From contig CBDCNQ010000005.1 in the NCBI GenBank assembly GCA_965219445.1, forward strand, positions 320,001 through 384,000: 64,000 bases of DNA, written 5' to 3'. Each line of letters opens with the position of its first letter. Position 1 is the stretch's first letter. The notes below the pieces were generated by a model, which searched no databases, had not been told where the DNA came from, and was given only the letters and a program-made list of their open reading frames with translations. The translations under genes were made by a program, and so were the position numbers. The DNA is from Longimicrobiales bacterium (GTDB taxonomy: Bacteria; Gemmatimonadota; Gemmatimonadetes; Longimicrobiales; Gaopeijiaceae). Below are positions 2,539 to 50,706 of the stretch, piece after piece.

Positions 2539-2586
2539 ATATCGGACCCTGTCACCCGTTCACAGGCAGTGGAGCCGTACCAATGA
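2539..2586 (+). pseudogene. Collapsed kinase stub (I/M-SDPVTR...QAVEPYQ*) overlapping the start of kinase 1
   Basis: ATA TCG GAC CCT GTC ACC CGT matches the family start MSDPVTR; its stop overlaps the kinase 1 ATG as ATGA. Confidence 0.45.
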
Positions 2587-5228
2587 CCGACGCCACCGTG
2601 GATCGCCTCAACACAGCCCTAGAAGGCCGCTACGCCATCGAGCGAAAACTGGGTGAAGGCGGCATGGCCGCGGTCTACCTGGCCGACGATCTCAAGCACG
2701 AGCGCAAAGTCGCGCTGAAGGTCTTGAAGCCCGATCTGGCTGCGGTCGTTGGGGCCGAGCGGTTCCTGGCTGAGATCAAGGTCACGGCGAACCTCCAGCA
2801 TCCACACATCCTGCCGCTCCACGATTCAGGCGAAGCGGATGGCTTCCTGTTCTACGTGATGCCCTACGTAGAAGGCGAGACCCTCCGCGACCGCATCGAC
2901 CGAGAGAAGCAGCTTCCTGTTGACGAAGCTGTCCGCATAGCGACGGCGGTGGCGGGTGCCCTCCAGACTGCTCACGAGCACGGCATCATCCATCGTGACA
3001 TCAAACCGGCCAACATCCTGTTGAGCCGAGGTGAGCCGTTGATCGCCGACTTCGGGATCGCTCTGGCTGTCGGTGCGGCAGGAGGTAGTCGGCTCACGGA
3101 GACGGGCCTGAGTATGGGCACTCCGTATTACATGAGCCCTGAACAGGCGACCGGTGACCAACACGTCGGCCCTTCGACCGATACGTACGCACTGGGCGCA
3201 GTGTTGTACGAGATGCTGACGGGCGACCCACCGTATATGGGGAGCACAGCGCAGGCGGTGCTGGGTCAGATCATCGCGGGCGAGGCTGTGTCCGCCACGA
3301 AGAAGCGTGGCTCGGTACCTGCGAACGTGGATGCGGCTCTCCGTTGTGCCCTGGAGAAGCTACCCGCTGACCGATTCCGGAGCGCGAGCGGCTTCGCTGA
3401 AGCGCTGACGAATCCGGGCTTTAGGACGAGCTCCGCTACGCGACCGGATACAGCTCGGTCGGGCACTCCGCGCCGCGTGGCCTCAGTCGGAGCTGCACTC
3501 CTCACGCTCGGAGTCGGATTCGTCGTGGGTCGGACATTCGGTGAGAGCGACAACTCGGTGACTAAGCTGATGATTCCTACCTCCCCGCAGCTGCGCGTCG
3601 GTTTTGGTCCGGCGGTGGCGGTCTCGCCCGACGGCTCAGAGTTCGTGTATGTCGGAGTCGAGGGGGGTGGCATCGCCGCGGACATGAACCGTGCCAACCC
3701 CGATAGGAGGCTCTTTCGTCGTCGGCTCGCCGATCTCGAGATTTCGGCGATTCCGGGTACGGAACGAGCGTACGAACCGACCTTCTCGCCCGATGGCGAC
3801 TGGGTCGCGTTCGTGGCTGATGGCAGGCTCTGGAGGGTAAGCCTCGACGGGAATCGTCGTATTGAGATCGCTGATGTCTCTGCCGCCGAGATGCGGGGGA
3901 TCAGCTGGAGCAGCACGGACGAAATCTTCTACGTCCCGGCCGGCACGGCCGGGCTCATGAAAGTCTCAGCAGCGGGGGGTACGCCGGAGGTGGTGATTCC
4001 GTTGGATACCGTGGGCCTGAGGTGGCCCAACGTCCTCCCGAGTGGGGACGCAGTCATGGTGACCATCTGGAACGGGAGCGTGGAGAACGCCGAGCTAGGA
4101 GTGGTCGATGTGGCCTCGCAGCGTCTCATACCGTTGGGTGAGCGAGGGATGGGGTCCGTCTACGCCGAGTCGGGGCATGTCGTCTACGTGCGTGCGGACC
4201 GAACGTTGCTCGCCGCCCCCTTCGACCTTCGAACCCGTACCATCACCGGGGCACCCGAGCCCCTCGAGGATAGCGTCTCCATTTACCCCGGTGGTGCGTC
4301 GCACTTCGCGCTCTCCCGCCAGGGAACGCTCGTGTATTGGCGGCTTCATCTGCCGCTACGATCCCTCTTGCTCGTCGACCGGGGAGGCTTGGTGGTGCGA
4401 ACGATCGGCACGGACACGCGCTTTGACACAGGTCGACCAGCGATTTCCCCGGATGGAGCCCGGTACCTGGTTCCCCTCGTGGGCGCGGTCAGCAACGCAG
4501 ACATCTGGGTGGGCGATCTGACCCAGGAGAATCTACGCCCCTTCGAGGAACAGGGAGATGTCAACTCCGGCATTTGGCTGGGAAACGATTCGATCGCGTT
4601 CCTTTCCGATAGGGCCGGTTCACCAGACTGGTTCGTTGGTGCCGTTGACGACCGGAGTCCCGCCACTCAGCTCTTTGCAGACGATATCGACCAGTGGGGT
4701 GGCACCTGGGTGCCCTCAGCCCGAACTCTGGTTTTCGGCGAAACACGAATAAGCTCCGGTTACGACATTTCGGGATTCCAGCTCGGGTCGGACTCTCCAT
4801 TCACCCTGCTTGACGGGGCAGGAATCGACGAGTGGCAACCTCGTGTTTCGGCCGACGGCGCATGGCTGGTCTATGCGTCGGATGAAATCAACGGCCGGAG
4901 CGAGATCTTCGTCCAGCGGTTCCCCGATCTCACTGGCAAACGGCGCGTTTCGACCGGCGGGGGAGACGCGCCGACATGGTGTCCGCAGCGGAAGGAGTTG
5001 TTCTACGTAATCGCTGACAGCCTAGTCTCTGTGACATACGACGACGCCGAGGAATTCGACATCTTGGACCGGACGGTCCTGTTCACTTCTGACCTCGTGA
5101 GAAACACCTACGACGTTCATCCCGACTGTGAGACCTTCATCATGTTGAGAGATGACGAGGAGGAGCGGCGCGACATTGTAGTCGTCCAGAACTTCTTCGA
5201 GGAGCTTCGCCAGCGGGTGGGGAATTAA
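2583..5228 (+). CDS. Ser/Thr protein kinase (Hanks type) with TM helix and TolB/PD40-like beta-propeller region (kinase 1)
   Basis: LGEGGMAAVY, VALKVL, HRDIKPAN, DFG, GTPYYMSPE; repeated SPDG motifs; C-terminal VVQNFFEELRQRVGN; start set at MTDATV by alignment with paralogs. Confidence 0.95.
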   Translation: MTDATVDRLNTALEGRYAIERKLGEGGMAAVYLADDLKHERKVALKVLKPDLAAVVGAERFLAEIKVTANLQHPHILPLHDSGEADGFLFYVMPYVEGETLRDRIDREKQLPVDEAVRIATAVAGALQTAHEHGIIHRDIKPANILLSRGEPLIADFGIALAVGAAGGSRLTETGLSMGTPYYMSPEQATGDQHVGPSTDTYALGAVLYEMLTGDPPYMGSTAQAVLGQIIAGEAVSATKKRGSVPANVDAALRCALEKLPADRFRSASGFAEALTNPGFRTSSATRPDTARSGTPRRVASVGAALLTLGVGFVVGRTFGESDNSVTKLMIPTSPQLRVGFGPAVAVSPDGSEFVYVGVEGGGIAADMNRANPDRRLFRRRLADLEISAIPGTERAYEPTFSPDGDWVAFVADGRLWRVSLDGNRRIEIADVSAAEMRGISWSSTDEIFYVPAGTAGLMKVSAAGGTPEVVIPLDTVGLRWPNVLPSGDAVMVTIWNGSVENAELGVVDVASQRLIPLGERGMGSVYAESGHVVYVRADRTLLAAPFDLRTRTITGAPEPLEDSVSIYPGGASHFALSRQGTLVYWRLHLPLRSLLLVDRGGLVVRTIGTDTRFDTGRPAISPDGARYLVPLVGAVSNADIWVGDLTQENLRPFEEQGDVNSGIWLGNDSIAFLSDRAGSPDWFVGAVDDRSPATQLFADDIDQWGGTWVPSARTLVFGETRISSGYDISGFQLGSDSPFTLLDGAGIDEWQPRVSADGAWLVYASDEINGRSEIFVQRFPDLTGKRRVSTGGGDAPTWCPQRKELFYVIADSLVSVTYDDAEEFDILDRTVLFTSDLVRNTYDVHPDCETFIMLRDDEEERRDIVVVQNFFEELRQRVGN

Positions 5229-5273: not shown

Positions 5274-6173
5274 ATGGATGACGAAAAAACAATCATCACC
5301 CGGAAATCGGTGCTCGAGGACGAGGGGCTCGACAAAAGTCATGCCTCCTTGATCGTCCTAAAGGGCGCGGAGATCGGCCGGGACTTTCGTCTGCGAAAGA
5401 ACACTATGGTCATCGGGCGCAGTACGACGGCCGATATCTGTCTACCGGATGACAAAGCATCCAGAGAGCATGCTCGCATCGATTATCAAGGGACGGGTAA
5501 AGACCAGCGAGCGATCTTCACCCTCACCGATATGGGGAGCACGAATCACACCTTCGTTGATTCAAAACAGGTGGAATCCGTCCAGCTTCAAGATGGAGAC
5601 AAGATTCAGATCGGTGACTCGGTATTGAAATTCGTTGTCCTCGACAACATCGAAGCCAGATTTCACGCAGATGTCCGCGACCTGATTTCCTACGATCAGC
5701 TCACAGGCTTGTTGACGAAGGAATCCCTCTACTTGGCCTTTGATAGAGAGCTGAAACGGTGCCTGCGCTACGGCCTTCCCCTTGGGGTTTTGATGATGGA
5801 CCTGGATTTCTTCAAATCAGTAAACGACGGGCATGGCCATCTGATGGGGAGCCATGTGCTGGCTGAAGTCGGGCGTCTCATCCAACAATCCATCCGTATC
5901 GCCGATGTTTCCGCACGCTACGGGGGAGAGGAATTCCTCAGTTATTTGGCGGAGACCGATACTGCGGGAGTCGAACTCGCCGGAGAACGCATTCGAAGCG
6001 AAATCGAGGCCTTCCCCTTCGTCTTGGATGACGTAAGCATTCACGTCACCATCAGCATCGGCATTGCTGTGGCCCCGAGGCACGGGGAGAATATCAAAAC
6101 CCTCGTGGCTGCGGCCGATCAAGCACTCTATCGTGCAAAGGAAACCGGACGGAACCGGGTGTGCATCGCATAA
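5274..6173 (+). CDS. FHA-domain diguanylate cyclase (FHA-GGDEF)
   Basis: FHA motifs IGRS, ASREHA, DMGSTNHT; GGDEF motifs DQLTGL, DLDFFKSVND, RYGGEEF with RxxD (RIAD) I-site. Confidence 0.93.
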   Translation: MDDEKTIITRKSVLEDEGLDKSHASLIVLKGAEIGRDFRLRKNTMVIGRSTTADICLPDDKASREHARIDYQGTGKDQRAIFTLTDMGSTNHTFVDSKQVESVQLQDGDKIQIGDSVLKFVVLDNIEARFHADVRDLISYDQLTGLLTKESLYLAFDRELKRCLRYGLPLGVLMMDLDFFKSVNDGHGHLMGSHVLAEVGRLIQQSIRIADVSARYGGEEFLSYLAETDTAGVELAGERIRSEIEAFPFVLDDVSIHVTISIGIAVAPRHGENIKTLVAAADQALYRAKETGRNRVCIA

Positions 6174-6296: not shown

Positions 6297-9020
6297 ATGA
6301 CTGATCCAGTCACCCGCCTAAACGCAGCCCTCGAAGGCCGCTACTCCATCGAGCGTGAGATAGGCGAAGGCGGCATGGCCACGGTATACCTGGCCAAGGA
6401 CCTGAAGCACAACCGCAACGTCGCGCTCAAGGTTCTCAAGCCCGACCTGGCGGCTGTGGTCGGCGCCGAACGCTTTCTCGCTGAAATCGAGACCACCGCG
6501 AACCTGACTCACCCGCATATCCTGCCGCTGCACGATTCGGGCGAAGCGGATGGCTTCCTGTTCTATGTGATGCCCCACATCGAAGGGGAATCGCTCCGGG
6601 AGCGGATCGACCGCGAGAAGCAACTCGGTGTGGATGACGCACTGGCGATCACGCAGAAGGTTGCGGGCGCACTCGACTACGCGCACGAGAACGGCGTCGT
6701 GCACCGCGACATCAAGCCGGGCAACATCCTACTGAGTGAGCGGGGAGAGCCCCTCATCGCAGACTTCGGTATCGCGCTGGCCGTGGCTCAGGCGGGCGCT
6801 GGGCGCATCACCGAAACCGGCCTCAGCCTCGGGACGCCCCACTACATGTCGCCCGAGCAAGCAACGGGCGACCGAGATGTCGATCCCCGCTCGGATGTCT
6901 ACGCGCTCGGCTGTGTGCTGTACGAGATGCTCGCCGGGCAGCCGCCCTTCTCGGCCACTACAGCCCAAGCGGTGCTGGTGAAGATTCTCACGGTGGATGC
7001 ACCGTCGATCACGAATGAGCGCAGGTCCGTGCCGCTCAACGTCGGCCATGCACTCGCGAGGGCTCTGGAAAAGCTGCCCGCCGACCGCTTCGCGAGCGCG
7101 GCTGAGTTCGCGGCGGCGCTCGGGGATGAGAGCTTCACGTACAGAGTGCGAGCTCAGACATCCGTAATGGCCTCGACCCCGGGGTCGGTGGGCACGCAGG
7201 CGCTGGCCGCGACGCAGGGCACCTGGAATCGGCTGACGGTCGCCTTCGCGACCACCGCCATCCTCCTTGCAGGGTTGGCCGCCTGGGACTGGCTCCGTCC
7301 CGCACCGCAAGCTCCGGCGGTCTACGCCACTCGCCTCCCCATCGACGTTGGTGAGATTGAAATTGGCCGGTTTGAGGAAATCGTCGTGTCGCCGGACGGC
7401 TCACGCTTCGCCGTGACAGGGACGGTTGAAGGCGAGCGGGCTCTATACTGGCGGAGCGCCGATGAGGAGAGCTTCCGAGTGGTCCCTGGAACGGGGGGCG
7501 CTCGCGGAGCGACGTTCTCTCCTGACGGAGATTGGATCGCATATGGCACCGTAGACGGTGCCCTCTTGAAGGTGTCGCTGTCGGGAGGTGCACCGGCTCT
7601 TCTAGTCCGAGCGGGGCGTGTGAGTCAGCTGGTGTATTTCCCCCATTGGGGCGATGACGAGACGATAGTATTTGGCAATCCGATCGGCTCGTTCCAGGTA
7701 CCCGAGACGGGTGGTGAGCTCACGCCTCTCAGCGCGCCAGAGCCGATTCTATTTCCCCATCAGCTTCCGGGTGGCTGGGCGGTGCTCGGAAGCCGGGTCG
7801 CTGGCGGAGTCGTCCTGCTGGATCTCCAGTCAGACACCATGCGCGAGTTGCATCCAATCGGCTTCAAACCGAAATACGTAGAAACGGGCCATATCCTGTA
7901 TCTCGATGGCTCCGGTGGCCTGTGGGCGCTCCCCTTCGATGGAGCGAATGGCGACGTGCTAGGGGATGCCGTCCCGATCTTGGACGGAGTGAGTGTCATA
8001 CCGTTCGGACAATACCGTTTCCCTCGCTATTCGGTCTCGCGAAACGGAACGCTGACGTATGCTGCGGGAGGTGGTGCTGGTGGCGGAGGAGCGGAGTGGC
8101 CGCTCGTGGTAGTGGATCTGGAGGGTAATGAAGAGACTCTCACCCTGAGCCCACGAAGCTTCGGCGAAGTGGCTTGGTCTCCGGATGGACGGTCGGTCGT
8201 TTACCAGAGCACCGCCGAGGGCGATCAGGACCCCGACATCTATACCTACAACGTTGAGACGGGGACGACGCCGAGGCAGCTCACGTTCGAGGGAATCAAC
8301 GTCCGCCCAGTGTTTTCGTCTGACGGGACCCGCGTCGCCTTCGCCTCACAACGGGAATGGACCGACGGATTCGATCTGTTCGTGAAGACCCTGGGCGACG
8401 ACGCGCCGGCTAGATCCCTCATCTCGCGCCCCGGGGATGAATACCCGACCCAATGGCCGTCCGAGACGCTGATCGTGTTCGAGCAGGGGCCGAATCCCTC
8501 GGATCTCTGGATGCTCGATCTCTCAAACCCGGACAGCGTGAGAGCCGAAGTGTACCTACCCCTGGAAGCTGACCTCGACGACATCGTGGTCTCCCCAGAC
8601 GGTGCCCTCGCGGCGTATGCGTCCAACGAGTCGGGAAGTGATGAGATCTACATCCGGAGCTTTCCTGAACCCGGTGAACGGACACTCGTGTCGCAGGGTG
8701 GAGGGCAATACCCCCTCTGGTCACCGGACGGCAACACCGTCTACTACTGGGGCCTATCGGAAATTCCGGGAGCCCAGGACACCTTCATGGCTGCCCGCAT
8801 TCAACGAGATCCGACGCCGGTGGTGCTGACCAGGGACTCCTTGTTCACGGGGGAATACTACCGACCCGGCTCAGACCTCCATCCCGACGGGGACCGTGTG
8901 GTAGTCCCGCGAACTCCAGACCAAGCAGCCACCGACCTGGAAGGCGTGGCTTCAGGGTCAGAGCGATTCCTGGTCGTCACGAACTGGTTCGAGGAGCTTC
9001 GCGGGCGGGTGGGCAATTGA
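6297..9020 (+). CDS. Ser/Thr protein kinase with TM helix and TolB/PD40-like beta-propeller region (kinase 2)
   Basis: IGEGGMATVY, HRDIKPGN, DFG, GTPHYMSPE; WSPDG/FSPDG repeats; C-terminal VVTNWFEELRGRVGN. Confidence 0.95.
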   Translation: MTDPVTRLNAALEGRYSIEREIGEGGMATVYLAKDLKHNRNVALKVLKPDLAAVVGAERFLAEIETTANLTHPHILPLHDSGEADGFLFYVMPHIEGESLRERIDREKQLGVDDALAITQKVAGALDYAHENGVVHRDIKPGNILLSERGEPLIADFGIALAVAQAGAGRITETGLSLGTPHYMSPEQATGDRDVDPRSDVYALGCVLYEMLAGQPPFSATTAQAVLVKILTVDAPSITNERRSVPLNVGHALARALEKLPADRFASAAEFAAALGDESFTYRVRAQTSVMASTPGSVGTQALAATQGTWNRLTVAFATTAILLAGLAAWDWLRPAPQAPAVYATRLPIDVGEIEIGRFEEIVVSPDGSRFAVTGTVEGERALYWRSADEESFRVVPGTGGARGATFSPDGDWIAYGTVDGALLKVSLSGGAPALLVRAGRVSQLVYFPHWGDDETIVFGNPIGSFQVPETGGELTPLSAPEPILFPHQLPGGWAVLGSRVAGGVVLLDLQSDTMRELHPIGFKPKYVETGHILYLDGSGGLWALPFDGANGDVLGDAVPILDGVSVIPFGQYRFPRYSVSRNGTLTYAAGGGAGGGGAEWPLVVVDLEGNEETLTLSPRSFGEVAWSPDGRSVVYQSTAEGDQDPDIYTYNVETGTTPRQLTFEGINVRPVFSSDGTRVAFASQREWTDGFDLFVKTLGDDAPARSLISRPGDEYPTQWPSETLIVFEQGPNPSDLWMLDLSNPDSVRAEVYLPLEADLDDIVVSPDGALAAYASNESGSDEIYIRSFPEPGERTLVSQGGGQYPLWSPDGNTVYYWGLSEIPGAQDTFMAARIQRDPTPVVLTRDSLFTGEYYRPGSDLHPDGDRVVVPRTPDQAATDLEGVASGSERFLVVTNWFEELRGRVGN

Positions 9021-9768: not shown

Positions 9769-9900
9769 TTGCGCCTAGCGGCCCACACTCGGATGTTGAG
9801 CGCAGTCTGATCCCGGAGTGCGTGCATGTCCGATCCAGTCGCTCGCCTGAACACCGCCCTCGAAGGCCGCTACGCCGTCGAGCGTGAGCACGACCGATGA
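9769..9900 (+). repeat. Kinase 5' stub with promoter element: TTGCGC-N17-GATGTT, then MSDPVARLNTALEGRYAVEREHDR* (9826-9900)
   Basis: Close nucleotide match to 23498-23633 and to the intact kinase starts; homology ends after about 21 codons. Confidence 0.9.
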
Positions 9901-9939
9901 GTCGCAGACTCTCAGCTGGTCTCATGCTCGCGGTAGCAG

Positions 9940-10704
9940 TGCTTGTCCATCTGGAACCATGTCACCTTGGATGACCCCCGCCGTCGATACCCAACGCGGG
10001 CTGTTCATCTTCGGGATCGGCTCCAGCGCGCCTCAGCAGCCCGAGTTGGCCGGAACCGACGGGGAGTGGCCCGATCGACTCTACCACGGATCGACCGTGG
10101 CCCTCGAAGCCCGTACGGGTGAGCTCGTGTGGTGGGCGCAGCACCACACGGACATGTGGAACAACGATGCCGTATACGACAGGATTCTCGTCGATTCTCC
10201 GGTGACGCCCGATCCCCCCGACGCCCTCGGTGTGAACCCGGACATCACACCTGGGGAGACCCGGGAGCTCGTCGTGGGCTCCTTCTCGAAGGACGCCATC
10301 TTCTACGCCTATGACAGGAGCGATGGCACATTCCTGTATGCGAGGCCCACCGCCTACCAGAACGTCATCCAGGGTTATGACGGTAGGACCGGCGCTTTCA
10401 TCACGAATCCCGACGCGGTCATGATCGCCGACGAGGACCGTGAGACTACGATTTGTAGGGAGAATAGACAGATTCCCCAGGGAGCCTACAGCCCGCTGAG
10501 GCCCTGTGGGAGACGATCCTCAACGGGGTGAGCGACATGGCGCCCATCACCTACTCCGTAGACGGTCGGCAATACATCGCGGTGATCTCGCCCGGGGGTA
10601 CGGCCGGATCGGCCCGCCACGTTGGCCAGCTGCGCGCTCGGGTGCCGATCGGGCAGAGAAACGTAGGGCATGCGTTGTTCGTCTTCGCGTTGCCCGAGGA
10701 GTGA
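9940..10704 (+). pseudogene. PQQ-dependent dehydrogenase remnant (N-terminus missing, internal deletion or frameshift near 10500)
   Basis: PWMTPAVD, STVALEARTGELVWW, GAYSPL, then in another frame LWETILNGVSDMAPITYSVDGRQYIAV...LFVFALPEE*. Confidence 0.8.
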
Positions 10705-10733: not shown

Positions 10734-12137
10734 TCAGCTATCCGTCAGCGCGGCTCGCATCTCGGCCCGTGAGGTGAACTTCACGCGAGGCCGCCCACCA
10801 GCCTCGCCTCGCGACTGCTCCAGCGCATCCAATCGGCTCCAGTCGTCATAGTTCACCAGGTGGGGTTGGCGCACCCGAACTAGTGCGTCGAGGGCCGATG
10901 GATCGGGATTCGCTGGATCGAGGACGCAGGACGACCCGGCGTCTTCCAGCATGGCGCCGGCGGTCTCCGTCCCGTCTTTTTTGTTCGTTCCGATCACTCC
11001 GGTCGGCCCGCGCTTGATCCAGCCGCTGACGTACATCCCCCGCATCGGTTGCCCGTTCTCTGGCTCGGTCACTCGGCCGCCCTCATTCGGGATCACTCCC
11101 CAACTCTCGTGGAATGGAAGACCCTCCATGGGGAGGCCCCGGTATCCGACCGATCGAAAGACCAGGTCCACGGGAAGCTCTTCGGTCTGCTCAGTGGCGC
11201 GAGGGCGCAGTTTCCCCCCGTCCGAGATGAGCTCGTTCTTCACGATTTTCATGGCCCGGAGCCTACCGTCGTCGCCGGCAATCAGCTCGGTGGGTGAGAC
11301 CAAGAACCGCAGGCTCAGCAAGCGCTCCTTACCCTCACGGGACCGCTGGGCGAAGTCTTCGAGAATCGCAAACTTCTTCTGCAGAGTGTCGTCATCCGTG
11401 TTCTCGAGTTCGGCCTGGCTGCGGGGATCGAGGCGCACGTCTTCCGGAGGGACGTGGATATCCGCTCCCTCGAGCTCGCCCAGTTCCCGCACTTCCGGAT
11501 TCGTGAAGGCGGCTTGGAGGGGCCCGCGCCGGCCGAGCATGGTCACCTCGCGCACTTTGCTCTGGCTCAACGCTTCGAGCGCGTGGTCGGCGATGTCGGT
11601 CTCCGCCAACTCATCGGGTGTGCGGCATAAGATCCGTGCGACGTCAACCGCGACGTTTCCGACGCCCACCACGGCGACACGCTCGGCGGAGAAATCGAAC
11701 TGATGGTCCCGGTAGTCCGGGTGGCCGTTGAACCACGCCACGAATTCGGTGGCGGTGTGGCTTCCGGTGAGATCCTCGCCGGGGATCCCCATCCGCCGAT
11801 CTGTCTCTGCGCCGGTGGCAAAGCAGATCTGGTGAAAGTGCTGGCTGAGGTCGGTCAGGCTGATGTCCTTTCCCACCTGCACATCGCCGAAGAACCGGAA
11901 CGTCTCTTGCTGGGCGATGCGGTCGAACACCCGCGTGACGTTCTTGATCTTCTGGTGATCCGGGGCGACACCAAAACGCACGAGGCCGAAAGGAGTCGGG
12001 AGACGATCGAACATGTCGACCTGGACGTGAACATCGCTCTGCTTGAGAAGGTGGTCGGCGGTATAAAACCCGGCCGGCCCCGACCCGATGATAGCCACCC
12101 TGAGCGGGTAGTCCACTGTCCCCAATTCCGACGTCAT
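10734..12137 (-). CDS. Ferredoxin--NADP+ reductase, adrenodoxin reductase/FprA-like
   Basis: VAIIGSGPAGFY, PTPFGLVRFGVAPDH, VVGVGNVAVD, GWIKRGPTGVIGTN; AAGGAG precedes the ATG at 12137. Confidence 0.93.
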   Translation of the reverse strand: MTSELGTVDYPLRVAIIGSGPAGFYTADHLLKQSDVHVQVDMFDRLPTPFGLVRFGVAPDHQKIKNVTRVFDRIAQQETFRFFGDVQVGKDISLTDLSQHFHQICFATGAETDRRMGIPGEDLTGSHTATEFVAWFNGHPDYRDHQFDFSAERVAVVGVGNVAVDVARILCRTPDELAETDIADHALEALSQSKVREVTMLGRRGPLQAAFTNPEVRELGELEGADIHVPPEDVRLDPRSQAELENTDDDTLQKKFAILEDFAQRSREGKERLLSLRFLVSPTELIAGDDGRLRAMKIVKNELISDGGKLRPRATEQTEELPVDLVFRSVGYRGLPMEGLPFHESWGVIPNEGGRVTEPENGQPMRGMYVSGWIKRGPTGVIGTNKKDGTETAGAMLEDAGSSCVLDPANPDPSALDALVRVRQPHLVNYDDWSRLDALEQSRGEAGGRPRVKFTSRAEMRAALTDS

Positions 12138-12355: not shown

Positions 12356-12373
12356 GTCGAGAGGTCCGTCCGA

Positions 12374-41212: not shown

Positions 41213-41213
41213 T

Positions 41214-42282: not shown

Positions 42283-42491
42283 GAGCCGGTGAAGTTTCCT
42301 GTTCAGTCGTTGAGCTCCCCGACGAACTCCTCCACGGAATCGGCTGGTGTCCGATGCTCGGGAGAGTCTAGAGACTGAACGCGCCCGTTGTCGAGAGCGG
42401 TTTTGAATTGACAGTCTTCTGGCTCACGACGACGTTGCCTCGCCGGGGGCGCCGCCCCAGCGGGACGACCGATCTCTAGGCGAGCGCGTCG

Positions 42492-43682
42492 ATGACGGAG
42501 AAGGAACCACATCAGAGTCCTGACGCTGGATCGGACGGCCGGGACACCCTGCCCCTGGAAGGAACTCTCGTGGTGGCCCTGGAGCAGGCTGTGGCCGCCC
42601 CCTTCGCCACCCGGAAGCTCGCGGACGCAGGCGCCCGGGTCATCAAGGTGGAACGAGCCGGCGGTGACTTCGCGCGGCGCTACGACGACGTGGCACGAGG
42701 CCAGAGCGCGTATTTCGTCTGGCTGAATCGGGGCAAGGAATCACTGGTCCTGGACATCAAGGATTCCGAGGACGCGGGCCTCCTGGCCCGAATCCTGGCC
42801 CGGGCCGACGTCTACATACAGAACCTGGGCCCGGGAGCGGCCACCCGGGCCGGCTTCGGCTCCGGAGCGCTGCGGGAACGACACCCGCGCCTCGTCACCT
42901 GCGACATCAGCGGCTACGGAGAAGAAGGTCCCTACGCCGAAATGAAGGCGTACGACAACCTGGTCCAGGGCGAGGCTGGCATCCATGGGGTCACCGGACA
43001 ACCAGACGCTCCGGCGAAGGTGGGGATCTCGATCTGCGACATCGGCGCTGGCATGTATGCCTACGGCTCCATCCTGGAGGCCCTTCTGCTCCGGGAGCGC
43101 ACCGGCCGGGGAGCGGGACTCGAGGTGTCTCTCTTCTCGGCCATGGGCGATTGGATGAGCGTGCCGTACCTCCACGCCGTCTACGGCGGGGAGGGTCCGA
43201 AGCGGATGGGCCTGAGCCATGCCTCCATCGCACCGTACGGAGCCTTCGCTTCCCGCGACGGTGAGCTGGTGTTGCTCTCGATCCAGAACGAACGGGAGTG
43301 GGAGCGCTTCAGCAAAGAGGTGCTCCAGCGACCCGGGATGGCGGAGGATCACCGTTTCCGGACCGGGGTGGACCGGGTGCGGAACCGTCCGGCGCTTCGC
43401 GAGGCGATCGAAGAGGTCTTCTCCTCCCTGACGACCGTCGAAGTCGTTGATCGCCTGCACGGTGCCCGGATCGCGTACGGCCGCCTCAACTCGGTGGAGG
43501 AGTTCGCCAGACATCCCCAGCTCCGGGTGCTGGAGATCGAGAGTCCCGGGGGGGCGATCGCGCTCCCGGCCGACCCGGTGCTCTGGAGCAGCGTCTGTGG
43601 ACGCCGGCAGCCGAGGGTTCCGGACATAGGCGAGCATTCCAATGCGATTCGAGATGAGTTCCGGGAGCAGAAGAAGGGATGA
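42492..43682 (+). CDS. CaiB/BaiF class III CoA-transferase
   Basis: LEQAVAAPFATRKLADAGARVIKVER, WLNRGKES, KAYDNLVQGE, ICDIGAG. Confidence 0.95.
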   Translation: MTEKEPHQSPDAGSDGRDTLPLEGTLVVALEQAVAAPFATRKLADAGARVIKVERAGGDFARRYDDVARGQSAYFVWLNRGKESLVLDIKDSEDAGLLARILARADVYIQNLGPGAATRAGFGSGALRERHPRLVTCDISGYGEEGPYAEMKAYDNLVQGEAGIHGVTGQPDAPAKVGISICDIGAGMYAYGSILEALLLRERTGRGAGLEVSLFSAMGDWMSVPYLHAVYGGEGPKRMGLSHASIAPYGAFASRDGELVLLSIQNEREWERFSKEVLQRPGMAEDHRFRTGVDRVRNRPALREAIEEVFSSLTTVEVVDRLHGARIAYGRLNSVEEFARHPQLRVLEIESPGGAIALPADPVLWSSVCGRRQPRVPDIGEHSNAIRDEFREQKKG

Positions 43683-45118
43683 GAGTTCCTCCCTCGAGCG
43701 AGGAGCCGGCGATGCCCACCGTGCGGACCGGAAGGCTCGTAGCCGCGGCTCTCGTGGGTCTGGGGCTGTGGCTCCTTCCCGTGCCGGTCGGTGTCGAGCC
43801 AGGGGCGTGGAAGCTCCTGGCCATCTTCGTCGCCACCATCGTCGGAATCATCCTACGTCCCCTTCCCATGGGAGCGGTGGCTCTGGTGGCGACCGGGGTG
43901 GCGGTCCTGTCCCGCACTCTCACGATCGAGGAAGCCACAGCCGGCTTCGGAGCTCCAATCGTGTGGCTGGTGGTGGCCGCCTTCTTCATTGCCACAACCT
44001 TCATCCACACCGGTCTCGGCATCCGGATCGCGTATCACTTCATGCGGGTTCTGGGAAAGCATACTCTGGGCCTGGGCTATGGACTCGTGGCCACCGACCT
44101 GGTGCTTGCGCCGGCGATTCCGAGCAACACGGCCCGGGCCGGGGGAGTGGTCTTCCCGATCCTGCAGTCACTCTGCGCCTCGCTTCGAGCCGATTCCTCG
44201 TCGGACGCCCCGGGAGGCGTCGCCGGCTTCCTGACCTTCACGGCCTATCAGGGGACGTGCGTGACCAGCGCCATGTTCTTGACGGCCATGGTGGCGAATC
44301 CTTTGGCCGTGGAGCTGGCGGCGCAGCAGGGAGTCGAGATCACCTGGACCGGATGGGCCCTGGCCGCTTCACTCCCGGGGCTCGTCAGCCTGGTCCTCGT
44401 TCCGCTCTTGATCTACTCCCTCTATCCCGTGGAGACCAGGGAGACCCCGGAGGCGCCGGAGCTGGCGCGAAGGTACCTCCGCGAGATGGGTCCCATGGCC
44501 CGGAACGAGCGGATTCTCCTTGGTGTGTTCGTACTGCTCCTGGGCCTCTGGATCTTCGGCTCCACCCTCGGCATCGCCACCACGACAGCCGCCCTCGTCG
44601 GTGTGGGGGTGCTGCTTGTAACCGGAGCCCTACCGTGGGAAAAGGTGCTGCGCGAGAAGAGCGCCTGGGATACCCTGATCTGGTTCGCCGTGCTCGTGAT
44701 GATGGCGAGTCAGCTGGGTGAGCGGGGGTTGGTGGATTGGTTCAGCGAGCACGTGGCTTCGGTGATCGGAGGAGAGCGCTGGCTGCCCGCCTTTCTCGTC
44801 CTCTCCCTCATCTACTTCTACAGCCACTACTTCTTCGCCAGCAACACGGCTCATGTGAGTGCCATGTACGCGCCGTTCCTCGCCGTCGCCCTCGCCGTCG
44901 GCACCCCTCCGCTCTTCGCAGCCCTGGTGCTCGCTTACTTTAGCAACCTGTTCGCCTCGATGACGCACTACGGGACGGCTCCAGCTCCAATCTTCTTCGG
45001 ATCGGGAAGCGTAGAGGTCGGGACCTGGTGGAAGCTGGGAGCACTGATCAGCCTCGTGAACATCGCCATCTGGCTCGGGATCGGGAGCCTCTGGTGGAAG
45101 GCGCTCGGGATCTGGTGA
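43679..45118 (+). CDS. DASS family anion permease (CitT/TtdT-like)
   Basis: PLPMGAV, PAIPSNTARAGG, TSAMFLTAMVANP, HYFFASNTAH, THYGTAPAP. Confidence 0.95.
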   Translation: MRVPPSSEEPAMPTVRTGRLVAAALVGLGLWLLPVPVGVEPGAWKLLAIFVATIVGIILRPLPMGAVALVATGVAVLSRTLTIEEATAGFGAPIVWLVVAAFFIATTFIHTGLGIRIAYHFMRVLGKHTLGLGYGLVATDLVLAPAIPSNTARAGGVVFPILQSLCASLRADSSSDAPGGVAGFLTFTAYQGTCVTSAMFLTAMVANPLAVELAAQQGVEITWTGWALAASLPGLVSLVLVPLLIYSLYPVETRETPEAPELARRYLREMGPMARNERILLGVFVLLLGLWIFGSTLGIATTTAALVGVGVLLVTGALPWEKVLREKSAWDTLIWFAVLVMMASQLGERGLVDWFSEHVASVIGGERWLPAFLVLSLIYFYSHYFFASNTAHVSAMYAPFLAVALAVGTPPLFAALVLAYFSNLFASMTHYGTAPAPIFFGSGSVEVGTWWKLGALISLVNIAIWLGIGSLWWKALGIW

Positions 45119-45156
45119 CCGCGACGGCGTTCCGACCGAGGCCGATTCCGACCGGG

Positions 45157-46017
45157 TCAAGACGACGGCTCTTCGGCGTCGCAGAGGATCCGCTCGGCCA
45201 TCAGGATGAGCGGGCGATCGATCATCTGGCCGTCGAGCGCGACCGCCGACCCCCTCGAGCTCGCGACCGCATCCAGAACCCGTTTCGCCCAATCGATCTC
45301 CTCCTGGCTCGGTCGGAAGCAGTCGTTCACGGGACCGATCTGGTTCGGGTGGATGCACAGCGTTCCACCGAAGCCGAGGCGTCGACCGCGACGGGTGTGG
45401 GCGCGCAGCCCCTCCTCGTCGTCGATTTCCGTCCAGACGCCGTCCACCGGCGGCTGAATACCCGCTAGGCGCGACACCAGGACCAGGTGCGAGCGAAAGG
45501 TGAGAAGCTCCTCGCCGTCGCCCTCTATGCCCAGGTCGTGCTGGAAGTCCAAGGAGCCGAACACGAGTCGCTGTACGCTCGGCTCGTGAGCGATCTCCAT
45601 GGCCCGGTGCATCCCCATCGCCGATTCGATCATGGGAAGGACCGGGACCTCCGGTCCGGTCCGTTCCCCGACGCGGCGTACCTCTTCGACGACCTCGACC
45701 TTGGGAAGGACCACCGCGGAAACCCCCGAAAGGCTGGCGAGCGCGAGGTCTTCCTGAAACCACTCGGACCCGGCGGCGTTGATGCGCAGCAGCACCGGGT
45801 GGGAGGAATCGAGCCACGCGCCGGCGGCCTCTCGGGCTCGTCCTTTGTCGCCGGGTCCGACGGCATCCTCCAGGTCGACGATGACCGCGTGCGCCTCCGA
45901 AGCGTACGCCTTCTCGTACAGATCCGGGCGGTTTCCGGGGACGAAGAGGAAGGAGCGGGCAATCGGCTGCACGAAAGAGCGCGTCGGCGTGCCTTCGGAT
46001 GGTTCGGGCGGCTCCAC
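45157..46017 (-). CDS. CitE-like/HpcH acyl-CoA lyase (start uncertain: 46017 or 45972)
   Basis: RSFLFVPGNRP, IVDLEDAV, PMIESA, FGSLDF, CIHPNQI, GQMIDRP. Confidence 0.92.
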   Translation of the reverse strand: MEPPEPSEGTPTRSFVQPIARSFLFVPGNRPDLYEKAYASEAHAVIVDLEDAVGPGDKGRAREAAGAWLDSSHPVLLRINAAGSEWFQEDLALASLSGVSAVVLPKVEVVEEVRRVGERTGPEVPVLPMIESAMGMHRAMEIAHEPSVQRLVFGSLDFQHDLGIEGDGEELLTFRSHLVLVSRLAGIQPPVDGVWTEIDDEEGLRAHTRRGRRLGFGGTLCIHPNQIGPVNDCFRPSQEEIDWAKRVLDAVASSRGSAVALDGQMIDRPLILMAERILCDAEEPSS

Positions 46018-46022
46018 CGGGC

Positions 46023-47549
46023 TCAGCCGGTGGGCCCGGAGAGCTGCACGAGCCGCTGGCGCCACCGGGCGGGGGCCGTCTCGTGCACCGAGGAGCCGTT
46101 CGCGTCCACCGCGACAGTCACTGGCATGTTCTCCACCTCGAACTCGTAGATCGCCTCCATTCCCAGCTCTGGAAAGGCCACGAGGCGCGAGGAGCGAATC
46201 GCCTTCGAGACCAGGTAGGCCGCGCCGCCGACGGCGACGAGGTACACGGCCCCGTGTCTCCGGATGGCCTCGACGGCGGTGGGGCCGCGCTCGCCCTTCC
46301 CGATCATCCCGAGCAGGCCGGTCGTCTCCAGCATGATCTCGGTGAACTTGTCCATGCGGGTCGCGGTCGTGGGACCGGCGGGGCCCACGACCTCGTCTCG
46401 CACGGGATCCACGGGTCCGACGTAGTAGATGAACCGGTCGGTGAAGTCGACTCCCGGGGGAAGGTCCTCCCCCCGGGCGAGCAGGTCGACGATCCGCTTG
46501 TGAGCGGCGTCACGCCCCGTCAGAATCCTGCCCGAGATGAGGAGCATGTCGCCGGCCTTCCAGTCGACCATCTCGGCGCGCGTCACGCCGTCGAGGTGCA
46601 CCGGGCGGGCCGTGGGCGCAGGTGCCCACTCGACCTCCGGCCAGTCCGCTGGATCGACGGGCGGGAGCTCGGCTGGCCCCGTGCCGTCCAGGACGAAGTG
46701 GGCGTGCCGCGTGGCCGCGCAGTTGGGAATGATGGCGACGGGAAGCGAGCCGGCGTGCGTGGGGTGGTCGCGGATCTTCACATCGAGCACAGTGGTCAGG
46801 CCACCCAAGCCCTGCGCCCCGATTCCGAGGGCGTTGACCCTGTCGTGGATCTCGACGCGCAGCTCCTCGAGCCGGTTCCGGGGACCCCGCTCCTTCAGCT
46901 CGTGCATGTCGATGGGGTCCAGCGCCGCCTCCTTCGCGAGGAGCATCGCCTTCTCGGCGCTCCCACCGACGCCGATCCCGAGGATCCCCGGCGGGCACCA
47001 GCCAGCCCCCATTTCCGGGACCACCTTCAGGACCCACTCGACCACGTCGTCGCTGGGGTTCAGGGTCGTGAACTTGGCCTTGTTCTCCGAGCCGGCACCC
47101 TTCGCCGCCACCTTCACCTCCACCGTGGAGCCCGGAACGAGCTCGACGTGGACGATCGCGGGCGTATTGTCGCCCGTATTGCCCCGCCTCCCCAGCGGAT
47201 CGGCGACCACAGAGGGCCGTAGAACGTTTTCCGGGTCGAGGTAGGCGCGCCGAACCGCTTCATTCACCATCTGCTCCACGCTTCCCGCGCCTTCCCACGC
47301 TACCCCCATCCCGATCTTCAGGAAGACCACCACGAGTCCCGTGTCCTGACAGACGGGCCGGTGTCCCTCGGCGCACATGCGTGAGTTGGTCAGGATCTGT
47401 GCGATGGCGTCCCGGGCGGCCGGCGACTCCTCACGCAGATACGCCTCGCCGAGCGCCCGGATGTAGTCACGGGGGTGGTAGTAGGAGATGTGCTGGAGGG
47501 CGTCGGCGACGCTGCCGATGAAGTCGTCCTCTCGGATCTTCACGCTCAT
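46023..47549 (-). CDS. Class I (Fe-S) fumarate hydratase
   Basis: PVCQDTG, AAKGAGSENK, GWCPPG, PNCAATRH, GRDAAHKR, GPTTATRMDK. Confidence 0.95.
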   Translation of the reverse strand: MSVKIREDDFIGSVADALQHISYYHPRDYIRALGEAYLREESPAARDAIAQILTNSRMCAEGHRPVCQDTGLVVVFLKIGMGVAWEGAGSVEQMVNEAVRRAYLDPENVLRPSVVADPLGRRGNTGDNTPAIVHVELVPGSTVEVKVAAKGAGSENKAKFTTLNPSDDVVEWVLKVVPEMGAGWCPPGILGIGVGGSAEKAMLLAKEAALDPIDMHELKERGPRNRLEELRVEIHDRVNALGIGAQGLGGLTTVLDVKIRDHPTHAGSLPVAIIPNCAATRHAHFVLDGTGPAELPPVDPADWPEVEWAPAPTARPVHLDGVTRAEMVDWKAGDMLLISGRILTGRDAAHKRIVDLLARGEDLPPGVDFTDRFIYYVGPVDPVRDEVVGPAGPTTATRMDKFTEIMLETTGLLGMIGKGERGPTAVEAIRRHGAVYLVAVGGAAYLVSKAIRSSRLVAFPELGMEAIYEFEVENMPVTVAVDANGSSVHETAPARWRQRLVQLSGPTG

Positions 47550-47701
47550 TGCACCTCTCCGGCCCGGGTCCTCAATGCTGTCCTCACAACGACGTCGCCC
47601 CGATATGGTCCCGCGACGGACCCAGGGTGGCTTTTACCGGAGCGGCGTCGGCGACCTTATCTATATAAACGAGTATCCGAAGTGGCCAGCACAGAGAGCG
47701 C

Positions 47702-47812
47702 TTGCGCCTAACGGCCTGCTCTCGGATGTTGACCTCGGTCTGATCTTCCCATGCCGAGGACATCACTGTGTACGACCCCGTCACCCGCCTGAACGCTGCC
47801 CGGGAGGCATAG
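47702..47812 (+). repeat. Promoter element TTGCGC-N17-GATGTT plus kinase stub VYDPVTRLNAAREA* (47768-47812)
   Basis: Matches 9769 and 23498; the stub stop abuts the ATG of kinase 3. Confidence 0.85.
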
Positions 47813-50494
47813 ATGACCGAAGGCCACACCGACCGCCTGGAAGCCGCGCTGGACGGTAAGTACCGCATCGAGCGGAAGCTCGGTGAGGGTGGGATGGCGT
47901 CGGTCTATCTGGCGGAGGACATCAAGCACAAGCGTAAGGTCGCGCTCAAGATCCTGAAGCCCGAGCTGGCGGCCGTGATCGGGGCCGAACGTTTCCTCTC
48001 GGAGATCCGGACCACCGCGAACCTTCAGCACCCTCACATCCTGGCGCTGTTCGATTCAGAGAGCGCCGACGGCTACCTCTACTACGTGATGCCGTTCATC
48101 GACGGCGAGACGCTGGAGGACAAGCTCGAGCGCGAGAGGCAGCTGGGTGTGGATGAAGCGGTCAGGATCGCGCGTGACGTGGCCGACGCGCTCGACTACG
48201 CGCACCGGCAGGGGGTGATCCACCGCGACATCAAGCCGGGCAACGTCCTGCTGCACGACGGCCGGCCAGTGGTGGCGGACTTCGGGATCGCGCTCGCGGT
48301 GAGCGCGGCGGGTGGCGGCAGGATGACCGAGACGGGCCTGAGTCTCGGCACGCCGCACTACATGAGCCCCGAGCAAGCGAGCGCAGACCGCGACCTGTCT
48401 GCCCGCAGCGATGTCTACAGCCTCGGGTGCGTGCTGTACGAGATGATCGCGGGCCAACCGCCGCACACGGGTCCGAGCGCCCAGTCAATCCTGGTCAGGA
48501 TTCTCACGGACACCCCACGGCCACTTACGGAGCTCAGGCACACCGTCCCACCTCACGTGGCCGCGACGGTCGCGAAGGCGCTCGAGAAGCTCCCGGCCGA
48601 CCGCTTCGAGACGGCAAAGTCGTTCCTGGAGGCGCTCGAGGACGAAGGGTTCGCCTACGAGCCCAAGGCGTTCACGAAGGCGGCGACGCCGGCGGCACCG
48701 CCGCCTGATGCGGCTCCGGCCCGACGCCCGACCTGGCAGTCGGTCTTGCCGTGGGCGGCGGCCGGCGTGCTCGCCATCGCCGCGGGGGCCTCCTGGCTCC
48801 AGCCCGATCCGCCCACGCTCGTGCAGCGCTTCCCGCTGGCCCTCGGTGACTTCGGGTACGGTGCGGGACCAGCGTTCGCGATCTCGCCGGATGGATCGAC
48901 GATCGCCTACATCGGTGTGGACCAGCTACTCTACTGGCGGTTGATCTCCTCGCTGGAGGCGCAGGTGGTGCCAGGAAGCGAGCAGTCGCGCAGCCCCTTC
49001 TTCTCGCCGGACGGCCGCACGATCGGCTATACGATCGGGCCGGTGGCCGACGACCGCATCCGCACGATGTCGCTGGACGGGGCTCCTCCGCGCACGCTCA
49101 CGCCGGACCACTTTCCGGGCGGCACCTGGGGCTATGACGGTTTCGTCTACTACGTGGACCTCGCCGGAGCGTTGTGGCGCGTGTCCGAGCAGGGCGGCGA
49201 CCCGGAGCTCTTGGCCGAGGCGAGCGATGACCTCCAGTTCAGGTGGCCGGACGCTCTTCCGGGCGGGCGCGCATTGCTCGTCGCCTCGCTCGGAGGGACG
49301 GTGTCGACCTTCGACTTGGAGTCCCGTGAGGCGACCCCGTTGCTTGCGGCGGGCATCGCGAGGTACGCCGGTGGCCACGTCTTCTGGGTGGACGCCGAGG
49401 GAACGCTCTTCGCCGCACCATTCGACCCAGGCACTCTGGAGCTGACGGGCGCGGGGGTGGAGCTGGCCGACGGCGTGCAAGCCAGCCTCCAGGGCTCCTT
49501 CGACTTCGCGGTCTCCGAGAACGGGACGTTGATCTATTCGACGGGTACGGGCGGATCGTCAGCCGGCGGCGGCCTCGTATGGGTGGACCGCGACGAGCAG
49601 GCTTCCGTGATCGATCCCCGGATCGCATCGGAGTTGATAGACATCGACAACCTTGCCTTGTCCCCGGATGGCCGCTTCGTCGCCCTCGAGGTGCAGACAG
49701 AACCAGCACCCGTGGAGGGCGCCCCTGCCCAGATCTGGGTCTACGATCTCGACCAGGGCGTATTCACACGGCTGACGTTCCAGGGTACCCGGAACGCGCA
49801 GCCGCGGTGGATGCCCGATGGCCGCGCGGTGGCGTACCTGTCGGATCAAGGCGAAGGCCCCACGGCCATCTGGTCCCAGCCCTACGACCGGACCGGGACA
49901 GACCAACTGCTGTTTCAGGCCGAGTGGGACATCACAGGGTTCGACGTCGCTCTGGTCGAGGGACTACCGCTCATCGTGGGTGGAAATGGTGGCCAGTGGC
50001 TGGCGCAGCCCGGGGGCTCGACGGTCGAGCCCTTCCTGGTGACAGACTTCGTGGAGTGGCGGCCCCGCATTTCGCCAGACGGCCGGTGGGTCGCTTACGA
50101 GTCCGACGAGTCCGGAAACCGTGAGGTGTACGTCCGCTCGTTCCCCGAGGGGGGACGTCCGTGGTCGATCTCGCGCGGGGCTGGGCAGATCCCGATGTGG
50201 AGTCGGTCGGGCGAAGAGATTGTTTACGGAGCACTAGGACAGGGTCTCCTGGCCGCTACCGTGGAGTTGAGTGAAGAGGTCCGGGTCTCCTCTACGAGTG
50301 TACTCCTTTCCAACCTGACTCCGTTCGAGCCGTCGGTCCCGACCCGTCCGTCCGCCTCGTACGACGTGTCGCTGGACGGCGAGCAGCTACTCCTCATCGC
50401 TAGTTCCGGGACGGGCGCGACAGGTGGCAGGGCAGAGGGCAACGTGCTCGTGCTCAACGTGTTCGAGGAGCTTCACCAGCGCACGGGGAACTGA
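47813..50494 (+). CDS. Ser/Thr protein kinase with TM helix and TolB/PD40-like beta-propeller region (kinase 3)
   Basis: LGEGGMASVY, HRDIKPGN, DFG, GTPHYMSPE; SPDG repeats; C-terminal VLNVFEELHQRTGN. Confidence 0.95.
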   Translation: MTEGHTDRLEAALDGKYRIERKLGEGGMASVYLAEDIKHKRKVALKILKPELAAVIGAERFLSEIRTTANLQHPHILALFDSESADGYLYYVMPFIDGETLEDKLERERQLGVDEAVRIARDVADALDYAHRQGVIHRDIKPGNVLLHDGRPVVADFGIALAVSAAGGGRMTETGLSLGTPHYMSPEQASADRDLSARSDVYSLGCVLYEMIAGQPPHTGPSAQSILVRILTDTPRPLTELRHTVPPHVAATVAKALEKLPADRFETAKSFLEALEDEGFAYEPKAFTKAATPAAPPPDAAPARRPTWQSVLPWAAAGVLAIAAGASWLQPDPPTLVQRFPLALGDFGYGAGPAFAISPDGSTIAYIGVDQLLYWRLISSLEAQVVPGSEQSRSPFFSPDGRTIGYTIGPVADDRIRTMSLDGAPPRTLTPDHFPGGTWGYDGFVYYVDLAGALWRVSEQGGDPELLAEASDDLQFRWPDALPGGRALLVASLGGTVSTFDLESREATPLLAAGIARYAGGHVFWVDAEGTLFAAPFDPGTLELTGAGVELADGVQASLQGSFDFAVSENGTLIYSTGTGGSSAGGGLVWVDRDEQASVIDPRIASELIDIDNLALSPDGRFVALEVQTEPAPVEGAPAQIWVYDLDQGVFTRLTFQGTRNAQPRWMPDGRAVAYLSDQGEGPTAIWSQPYDRTGTDQLLFQAEWDITGFDVALVEGLPLIVGGNGGQWLAQPGGSTVEPFLVTDFVEWRPRISPDGRWVAYESDESGNREVYVRSFPEGGRPWSISRGAGQIPMWSRSGEEIVYGALGQGLLAATVELSEEVRVSSTSVLLSNLTPFEPSVPTRPSASYDVSLDGEQLLLIASSGTGATGGRAEGNVLVLNVFEELHQRTGN

Positions 50495-50706
50495 TGTCTG
50501 ATCCCGTCGCCCGGCTGAACGCAGCCCTCGAAGGCCGCTACGCGATAGAGCGTGAGTTGGGCGAGGGCGGCATGGCGACGGTCTACCTGGCCGATGACCT
50601 CAAGCACGAGCGCAAGGTCGCCCTCAAGGTCTTGAAGCCGGAACTCGCGGCAGTCGTCGGCGCCGAGCGCTTCCTGGCCGAGATCAAGACGACGGCGAAC
50701 CTGACT
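50494..50706 (+). pseudogene. Truncated kinase 4 (first about 71 codons)
   Basis: TGATG overlap; MSDPVARLNAALEGRY...EIKTTANLT, then runs into the 3' end of a convergent gene. Confidence 0.92.

Follow-up and report, generated by a model that had tools for sequence, protein, structure and literature searches.

The window analysed here is a 64-kb stretch of the genome of a Longimicrobiales bacterium (contig CBDCNQ010000005.1 of assembly GCA_965219445.1; C5:320001-384000 of the source genome, G000), and its positions are counted below from its first letter. Our subject is a family of Ser/Thr kinase genes that is present in the window both as intact genes and as short remnants of the kinase 5' end, here called stubs, which lie among unrelated genes. 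The source genome is derived from a metagenome and comprises 4.56 Mb in 5 contigs, with 63% GC. Relatives of the kinase were found in genomes labelled Gemmatimonadota, several of them Longimicrobiales, and the sequencing runs that contain window DNA are from marine or sediment samples. The congeners used for comparison are G005, G006, and G007, with G004 added in the search for ancestral states.

Three intact kinase genes had been placed in the window in a preliminary description of this DNA, and Pfam confirmed all of them: K1 (2583-5228), K2 (6297-9020), and K3 (47813-50494), each on the plus strand. All three have a Pkinase domain (PF00069, E values of 1e-47 to 1e-48) followed by beta-propeller repeats (PF07676, PD40), the layout of a Ser/Thr kinase with a PD40 propeller. 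The proteins are ~890 amino acids each, with an overall mutual identity of ~40%. Among paralogs, identity in the kinase domain (amino acids 1-270) is 54-95% in 15-column bins and 63-89% in 30-column bins, identity in the sensor part is ~30%, and 15 of 17 full-length copies have a recognizable C-terminal motif, [WF]FEEL[RK]..GN*. The tandem kinases K1 and K2 are separated by a gene with FHA and GGDEF domains (5274-6173, plus strand). Since FHA domains bind phosphothreonine, this gene may connect the kinase to cyclic di-GMP signalling.

We searched for the family in three ways, with tblastn, with a protein profile built from 12 intact paralogs, and with a DNA profile of the first 300 nucleotides (nt), and the three agree on the copies in the window. 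The six-frame protein-profile search of the genome used relaxed filters. At a cutoff of E<0.01 for supported window copies, the DNA profile finds the three intact genes and seven stubs, all on the plus strand, and on the minus strand of the window it finds no kinase 5' end better than E=0.096. About 14 co-oriented copies had been counted before. The common orientation holds for all of them, but only 10 are statistically supported, while about four are marginal. The supported stubs end at nt 39, 51, 66, 80, 80, 94, and 213 of the kinase gene, and stub lengths in the window range from 13 to 71 codons.

Upstream of kinases and stubs there are conserved motifs that, judging from their hexamers and spacing, are putative promoters. 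In class A, CTTGCC is followed by 18 nt, CATnTT, 7 nt, and then ATG, which is a leaderless-type arrangement. In class B, TTGCGC is followed by 17 nt, GATGTT, and then a 27-nt leader with GGAG (Shine-Dalgarno). A third class, C, is rarer than A and B; the sequence TGTCGTATCATGA, which we had considered as the end of an element, was rejected as such because it belongs to this class. A motif of this kind (TTGCnn, 16-19 nt, nATnTT, or class C) is found upstream of 16 of the 21 long copies and 15 of the 26 stubs in G000, compared to a background of 0.17% in random windows. The presence of three upstream classes agrees with the earlier proposal that the stubs come from different paralogs. The same motif also precedes non-kinase genes, for example in G006 (L010), and other kinase-less copies exist. 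In the window, 9769-9887 and 23498-23616 are 89% identical over 119 nt, and there are further copies upstream of different genes. Mobile promoters are recognized by an identity of 80% or more across 50 nt or more in front of non-homologous genes, and such identity is found here.

The stubs of the window, all on the plus strand, differ in length and in how they meet the next gene. Directly upstream of K1, a class A motif (CTTGCA...GCATGTT) and a degenerate 15-codon stub occupy 2489-2582, and the stub frame stops within the ATGA that contains the K1 start codon. A copy of this upstream stub, with the first 6 codons of K1, is found at 22803-22871, adjoining a decayed HNH gene copy (22180-22767, minus strand); 2530-2601 and 22803-22871 are 93% identical, and both read as a promoter-like motif with degenerate first codons. 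These sites (2539 and 22812/22853) were not recovered by the DNA profile of the first 300 nt and were seen by their mutual match and by eye. The stub at 9826 is a 24-codon open reading frame (ORF; 9826-9900, profile match 9826-9891, nt 1-66) behind a class B motif and its leader (9769-9825). A degenerate stub at 12287-12355 (nt 26-94) lies between blocks 10742-12218 and 12358-13131 and is followed by a convergent gene, and the same junction of block b with a stub is present in G005 (L017 7204-8890). What had been described as a middle fragment at 21893 is actually a kinase 3' end: the 72-codon ORF at 21893-22111 (DNA profile match 21904-21949, nt 6-51) is an internally deleted kinase in which codons 1-17 are joined in frame to the last ~53 codons (profile amino acids 838-890). 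It is followed by a marginal 13-codon stub (22108-22149; profile match 22115-22149, E=0.11), whose GTG start overlaps the preceding stop (GTGA).

Further downstream, a class B motif and a 36-codon stub ORF span 23478-23665 (profile match 23555-23634, nt 1-80). This ORF stops 4 nt before the ATG of a cupin gene (23670-24221), and an AAGGAG ribosome-binding site lies inside it. At 41191-41323, a class C promoter remnant is joined to kinase nt 40-80 (DNA profile match 41213-41253), and the stub frame stops within the ATGA of an NmrA-like gene (41320-42282); this unit of stub and gene is 97.6% identical in G006, where it has a class B promoter and codons 1-25. K3 has a stub on each side. Before it, a class B motif and a 14-codon stub (47700-47812; profile match 47769-47806, nt 2-39) end with TAG directly before the K3 ATG, and after it, a 71-codon stub of a tandem kinase (50494-50706, nt 1-213) has a start that overlaps the K3 stop (TGATG). 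Tandem kinases with the same TGATG overlap are found at C4:859227/856536. The stub behind K3 is followed by a convergent TonB-receptor/DUF4249 block (50748-53999).

Given a metagenome-derived genome and a multicopy kinase 5' end, junctions of this kind might be produced by contigs misjoined at the repeat. Short-read contigs do break within some of the repeats (12216-12356 and 47741-47759), and one path through the graph leaves a class B copy at 23528 and resumes in another at 9805. That such contigs leave the junctions at 12216-12356 and 50607-51042 uncovered speaks neither for nor against a misjoin. However, contigs from X19 bridge seven junctions with 0 differences: 9826 (a 4138-nt contig), 10705/10742, 13131/13242, 15586/15602, 41214 (contig 40472-44688), 42296/42332, and the run from stub 47774 through K3 to stub 50494. 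Contigs from both X22 and X19 bridge 47700-47812. As X19 is possibly the source sample itself, its contigs are independent of the assembler but not of the sample. A false join at a repeat would also run on into another kinase body and leave no stub, and the same stub-cargo junctions are present in other genomes. We consider misassembly to be extremely improbable.

In the whole of G000, 21 copies of the family reach nt 290 (12 intact, four frameshifted, and five cut at 117-280 amino acids), and another 26 are shorter stubs that start at nt 1-8. The frameshifted full-length copies (C2:361315, C2:696950, C4:859227, and C5:1136943) may be true pseudogenes or may reflect errors in the assembly consensus. 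Most of the shorter stubs (22/26) end by nt 114 of a gene of ~2.7 kb, while uniform breaks would place only ~1 of the 31 truncated copies there. The clustering of breaks toward the 5' end, which had been claimed for the window, thus holds genome-wide, and a uniform distribution does not fit the counts. A detection bias can be ruled out as its cause: amino acids 1-270 are conserved throughout, which would make longer pieces easier rather than harder to detect, and the C-terminal motif can be recognized as well. Only eight isolated kinase 3' ends and about six internal pieces of the kinase domain were found in G000, and the 31 truncated copies that retain the 5' end outnumber the isolated 3' ends by about 4 to 1.

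Across four genomes, the stub ends are spread over nt 39-136. There is a local excess in G000, where 11 of the 27 stub ends within nt 39-114 fall at nt 80-94, whereas in the relatives the ends are spread evenly over nt 57-136 without an excess at nt 80-94. The break region is a zone and not a site, and we saw no common sequence behind the breaks. The excess in G000 would fit a mutational hotspot in the first ~140 nt, at which a DUF222-HNH nuclease or a G-rich, structure-prone stretch (GGGCGAGGGCGGCATGG) brings about breaks whose repair loses downstream DNA. There are four DUF222+HNH copies in G000, which we take to be REP13E12-like based on their domain content: an endonuclease gene divergent from K1 (595-2214, minus strand; Pfam PF02720 and PF01844), the decayed copy mentioned above, C5:1475607-1477269, and C4:801094-802491. 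The distance to a kinase 5' end is 0.4-2.4 kb for all four, a further copy is beside a kinase in G005, and the one readable junction shows 3-nt microhomology. On the other hand, about 47 kinase 5' ends have only four HNH genes among them, joint duplication could account for the HNH-kinase pairs, and the even spread of ends in the relatives points to no single site. We judge a hotspot of this kind improbable. Two of the DUF222+HNH copies are 95% identical up to a point inside the class A promoter-like motif, and the DNA between the HNH gene and the kinase contains a conserved near-palindrome, ATGTCTGGATGGGACAGAT.

At two loci, comparison with a relative reveals how a stub was formed. The intact G000 kinase at C5:1473186-1470493 is a 33-codon stub in G005 (L039), and both flanks are syntenic. 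The deletion in G005 keeps the frame. It removes the stretch from ~nt 99 to a point 2 codons ahead of the stop, with 3 nt of microhomology, and the resulting mini-ORF ends one base before the ATG of a downstream lipoprotein-like gene. The second locus is that of gene X (C5:308122 in G000). In G005, a kinase cut to 33 N-terminal and 24 C-terminal codons is followed by the natural spacer and X, and in G007, a 24-codon stub is fused 25 nt before the start of X, with the ribosome-binding site of X kept. Stub formation at these loci is by deletion in place. The genes behind the stubs had been regarded as captured there, but where a relative shows the ancestral state, the cargo was already the downstream neighbour of the kinase. 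Other in-frame internal deletions that keep the natural C-terminus are window 21893-22111 and C2:796395 in G000.

Kinase number also differs between genomes without such traces. Several G005 kinases (two in tandem in L038, and those in L041 and L042) are absent from the syntenic G000 sites with no remnant, and one syntenic locus has one kinase in G000 compared to four in tandem in G005. The ratio of long copies to stubs is 34:8 in G005, 4:17 in G006, and 10:17 in G007; the family is thus large and partly tandem in one congener and elsewhere (three others) mostly reduced to stubs. A clean internal deletion can be ruled out as the general rule. A piece of kinase lies downstream of only 1 of 25 G000 stubs, where it is the 3' end of an internal deletion, and therefore most deletions overran the gene or were followed by later trimming. 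Insertion also happens, since the stub at C2:376227 in G000 (nt 1-232) is parted from its continuation at C2:413364 (nt 227 onward) by ~37 kb that contain two recombinase genes, insertion sequence (IS) copies (four of a 1.57-kb element described below), and a tRNA 3' fragment by the right junction. In G007 (L081), the kinase split at C2:376227-413436 is uninterrupted. The insertion point, at nt ~230, is outside the zone in which the stub ends concentrate.

The stubs tend to end close to the start of another gene. A co-oriented ORF of at least 100 amino acids is found within 100 nt of the stub stop for 15 of 30 stubs in G000 (P=5e-4) and 21 of 44 in the relatives (P=9e-5), against a null expectation of 21%. 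The start of an ORF falls within -10 to +12 nt of the stub stop in 10/30 and 11/44 cases, compared to 5.7% in a set of 48,075 small ORFs, and an NTGA overlap at the stub stop is seen in 5/30 and 9/44 cases, compared to 2.1%. That these are real gene starts is shown by the downstream proteins, whose first residues look like signal peptides. Roughly one in six stubs shares its frame with a long ORF, which yields an N-terminal fusion. Cases with 243-670 codons are C2:410550, C3:128423, and C3:177010 in G000 and L028, L065, L068, and L070 in the relatives; the predicted proteins begin with 15-45 kinase residues and could be real fusions or annotation traps.

The genes between the stubs are organized in blocks that have their own history. 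The window blocks 10742-12218, 12358-13131, 13242-15586, 15602-19498, 41214-42296, 42332-47583, and 50758-54014 are scattered in the congeners, to which they map at 86-98% identity. Between stubs, identity of the blocks to the congeners is 90-98%, compared to 82-89% for the flanking core DNA. In G006, the blocks are inserts within core regions that are collinear with G000 at 82-89%. The flanks of block 50758-54001 are only 159 bp apart in G000 (C4:1139327/1139168), and blocks 42332-47583 and 12358-13128 lie together in G006 between flanks that in G000 are separated by 1.4 kb; at this site, G005 carries an intact kinase. The four-gene block 42332-47583 (CoA-transferase, Na/sulfate-type symporter, HpcH-type aldolase, and fumarate hydratase) has identical ends in three congeners, in three different contexts, and block ends coincide across several genomes. 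The blocks are not duplicates of native copies, as they are single-copy in G000. Given that they are scattered, insert-like, and single-copy, with shared ends, the window belongs to a flexible, horizontally exchanged gene pool.

The comparison with congeners bears out that stubs lie at block boundaries and synteny breaks, although the boundaries at 10705/10742, 13131/13242, 15586/15602, and 42296/42332 have no stub. It was also correct that cargo is found in either orientation (for example, on the minus strand, 10734-12200, 12374-13195, 15615-19489, and 50748-53999), and the order of the cargo is not the same in the relatives, with blocks being mobile among congeners. In contrast, capture of cargo at the stubs is not supported: in G006, there is no kinase or stub within 7 kb of the same blocks at 7 of 8 loci, and a kinase remainder beyond the cargo is lacking in all but 1 of 25 cases. 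The unaligned gaps beside the blocks in G006 contained nothing informative.

Some features of the cargo region are worth recording in their own right. The 215-amino-acid ORF at 9884-10531 (plus strand) matches only the middle of PQQ-dehydrogenase propellers (profile positions 222-311 of 595). It is 86-88% conserved in nine congeners and may be a small functional protein rather than debris. An IS3-type transposase pair, with a helix-turn-helix ORF and an rve ORF, is located at 30329-31578 (minus strand). The last 7 kb of the window are rich in repeats and transposase-like ORFs. A 153-bp repeat (57537-57689), found also at dozens of sites in G006 and G007, is within a multicopy element of ~1.57 kb, which has about 20 copies in G000 that are 87-89% identical to those in G006 and G007 and is probably an insertion sequence. 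Further multicopy repeats in G000 are 62155-62428 (about 25 copies), 57748-58327 (about 10), and 63226-64000 (5 copies), and the rve-type gene at 59409-60437 is 99% identical to a copy in G006 and has at least eight copies in G007.

Based on these observations, we think it reasonably likely that the stubs are paralogous kinases whose bodies have been deleted, and that they persist by means of a predicted promoter and translation start that would drive the next gene. A large, partly tandem ancestral kinase family would be in the course of being lost. The deletions that survive leave the first 40-140 nt of the kinase in place and run either to its 3' end or to a point shortly ahead of the ribosome-binding site of the next gene, and later deletions would trim more, as in the series from G005 to G007 at gene X. 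What remains would be a promoter-like element and a short leader ORF in front of the former downstream neighbour. Selection for downstream expression, together with repeated trimming of dead DNA, may leave only short promoter-proximal pieces, and the co-oriented array in the window would be the leftover of kinases once arranged in tandem or in a cluster, within a rapidly changing region that is exchanged horizontally. Deletion of gene bodies would account for the 5' bias, the shortness of the stubs, their position at boundaries between unrelated genes, and the stacking of stubs before K1 and K3, and the stubs would be co-oriented because they come from former tandem arrays.

Several observations weigh against this interpretation. 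A relative gave the direction of change at no more than two loci, and the ancestral intact state of the window's own stubs was not found in G004-G007. For half of the stubs, no co-oriented ORF begins within 100 nt, and the window stubs at 12287 and 50494 face convergent genes. In a control for in-frame coupling, stops in the other frames were also near gene starts (10/60), and therefore the junctions show proximity to gene starts and not selected coupling; translational coupling as a selected feature is not established. A simple sigma-70 scan flags none of the class A, B, or C motifs. Finally, deletion alone leaves unexplained why the blocks are 90-98% identical when the core is at 82-89%, and why their contexts vary.

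The raised identity of the blocks is among the reasons to consider the stubs as homology anchors, in which RecA-type recombination between at least 37 dispersed, co-oriented 5' repeats would excise, swap, or import the intervening DNA. Such an array would resemble an integrase-free cassette platform, operating within the genome and between congeners, and is compatible with the deletion model. At three junctions, homology between species begins inside the stub and the promoters upstream differ. From kinase nt ~41 on, G000 and G006 share 97.6% identity in the NmrA unit, with a class C remnant upstream in G000 and class B in G006, and the unit at C5:314261 in G000 is 96.6% identical to G007 from stub nt ~44-52, again with different promoters. 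One stub has different partners in different genomes: b-stub-B in G000, b-stub-X in G005, and Y-stub-X in G007. Synonymous identity is also raised at codons 16-45 (0.70-0.72, compared to about 0.45-0.6 elsewhere). However, every one of these promoter swaps can be explained equally well by deletion within a former tandem pair, and most of the same blocks in G006 sit in stub-free core contexts. Recombination between two intact genes yields chimeric intact genes and cannot create stub-cargo junctions. An inversion break in G005 and G007 does have a stub, but neither of the matching G000 sites (C2:420626/468971) has one, and we therefore rejected a stub-mediated inversion there. Overall, we regard homology anchoring as unlikely, though it deserves some weight. 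A broader version, in which the kinase 5' module (promoter and first 40-140 nt) is a lineage-wide portable junction that combines expression signals with RecA-type homology into an integrase-free cassette platform, perhaps seeded by DUF222-HNH breaks, seems to us quite unlikely.

The preliminary description had proposed an integron-style platform with the kinase 5' region as a breakage and integration hotspot. Read as a site-specific, integron-like or island-accretion system, this would make the kinase 5' end an attachment site. Co-oriented stubs amid cargo do look like the rows of gene-end fragments that arise when site-specific integration is repeated, a search of the whole genome with PF00589 gave 66 tyrosine-recombinase matches, and the kinase divided between C2:376227 and C2:413364 is split by DNA with recombinase genes, IS copies, and a tRNA fragment. 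But none of the 66 matches is in the 64-kb window, where Pfam scans of 55 ORFs found only rve-type transposases. The 66 matches in 4.56 Mb often form identical multicopy sets, an unusually high load of recombinase-bearing elements. No repeat shared by the block ends was seen by eye in the linkers, with no dedicated attC model run, and Rfam gave zero matches over the window. The variable stub lengths, the spread of breaks over nt 39-136, the cargo in both orientations, and the documented deletion in place also speak against an attachment site, and we consider site-specific integration very improbable.

Integrons consist of attI and attC sites, the integrase IntI, and the promoter Pc. Like an integron, the stubs place a fixed upstream promoter element before varied genes, and some cargo starts at the end of a short upstream ORF. 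Unlike an integron, there is no IntI in the window, no attC-like repeats were seen by eye, junctions and cargo orientation vary, and in the readable cases the cargo followed the kinase before the stub formed. Island accretion at tRNA or protein genes leaves fragments whose constant length is determined by the crossover site, with an integrase at one island end. The window similarly has co-oriented fragments of one gene end amid accessory blocks, but its stub ends vary and it contains no integrase.

The erosion of pseudogenes by a deletional bias in bacteria was reportedly set out by Mira, Ochman and Moran in 2001. The kinase family fits this picture in that dispensable paralogs are lost by deletions of varied size, with frameshifted, truncated, and nearly erased copies coexisting. 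It differs from plain neutral erosion in being one-sided, with 31 copies that retain the 5' end and eight isolated 3' ends, and in halting at a promoter-proximal remnant. The closest comparison is to promoter reuse and putative mobile promoters (Nijveen, Matus-Garcia and van Passel 2012, PMC3575422), where how such promoters move is stated to be unknown and a filter removes reuse that extends into coding regions. As in that work, upstream stretches of 60-200 nt that are 80-93% identical are found before unrelated genes, within and across genomes. Here, in contrast, the reused unit enters the coding region and carries 13-45 donor codons that reveal its origin, and our data favour deletion of the donor body over movement of the promoter. 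In the titles and opening lines of abstracts of the literature on threonine kinase expansion in Gemmatimonadota, we found no description of the stub pattern.

The finding is probably a lineage-specific variant of promoter reuse, by way of gene-body deletion, in a very fluid genome region. It provides a readable origin for promoters that appear to be reused: the promoter stayed in place and the gene behind it was deleted, which is visible because the reused unit carries the first codons of the donor. For annotation, stubs are a source of short ORFs and of false N-terminal extensions or fusions. The signalling family turns over very fast: two species of one genus have 34 and four long copies. 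Provided that the promoters are active, a sensor-kinase family would have its regulation in common with dozens of unrelated genes in this genus.

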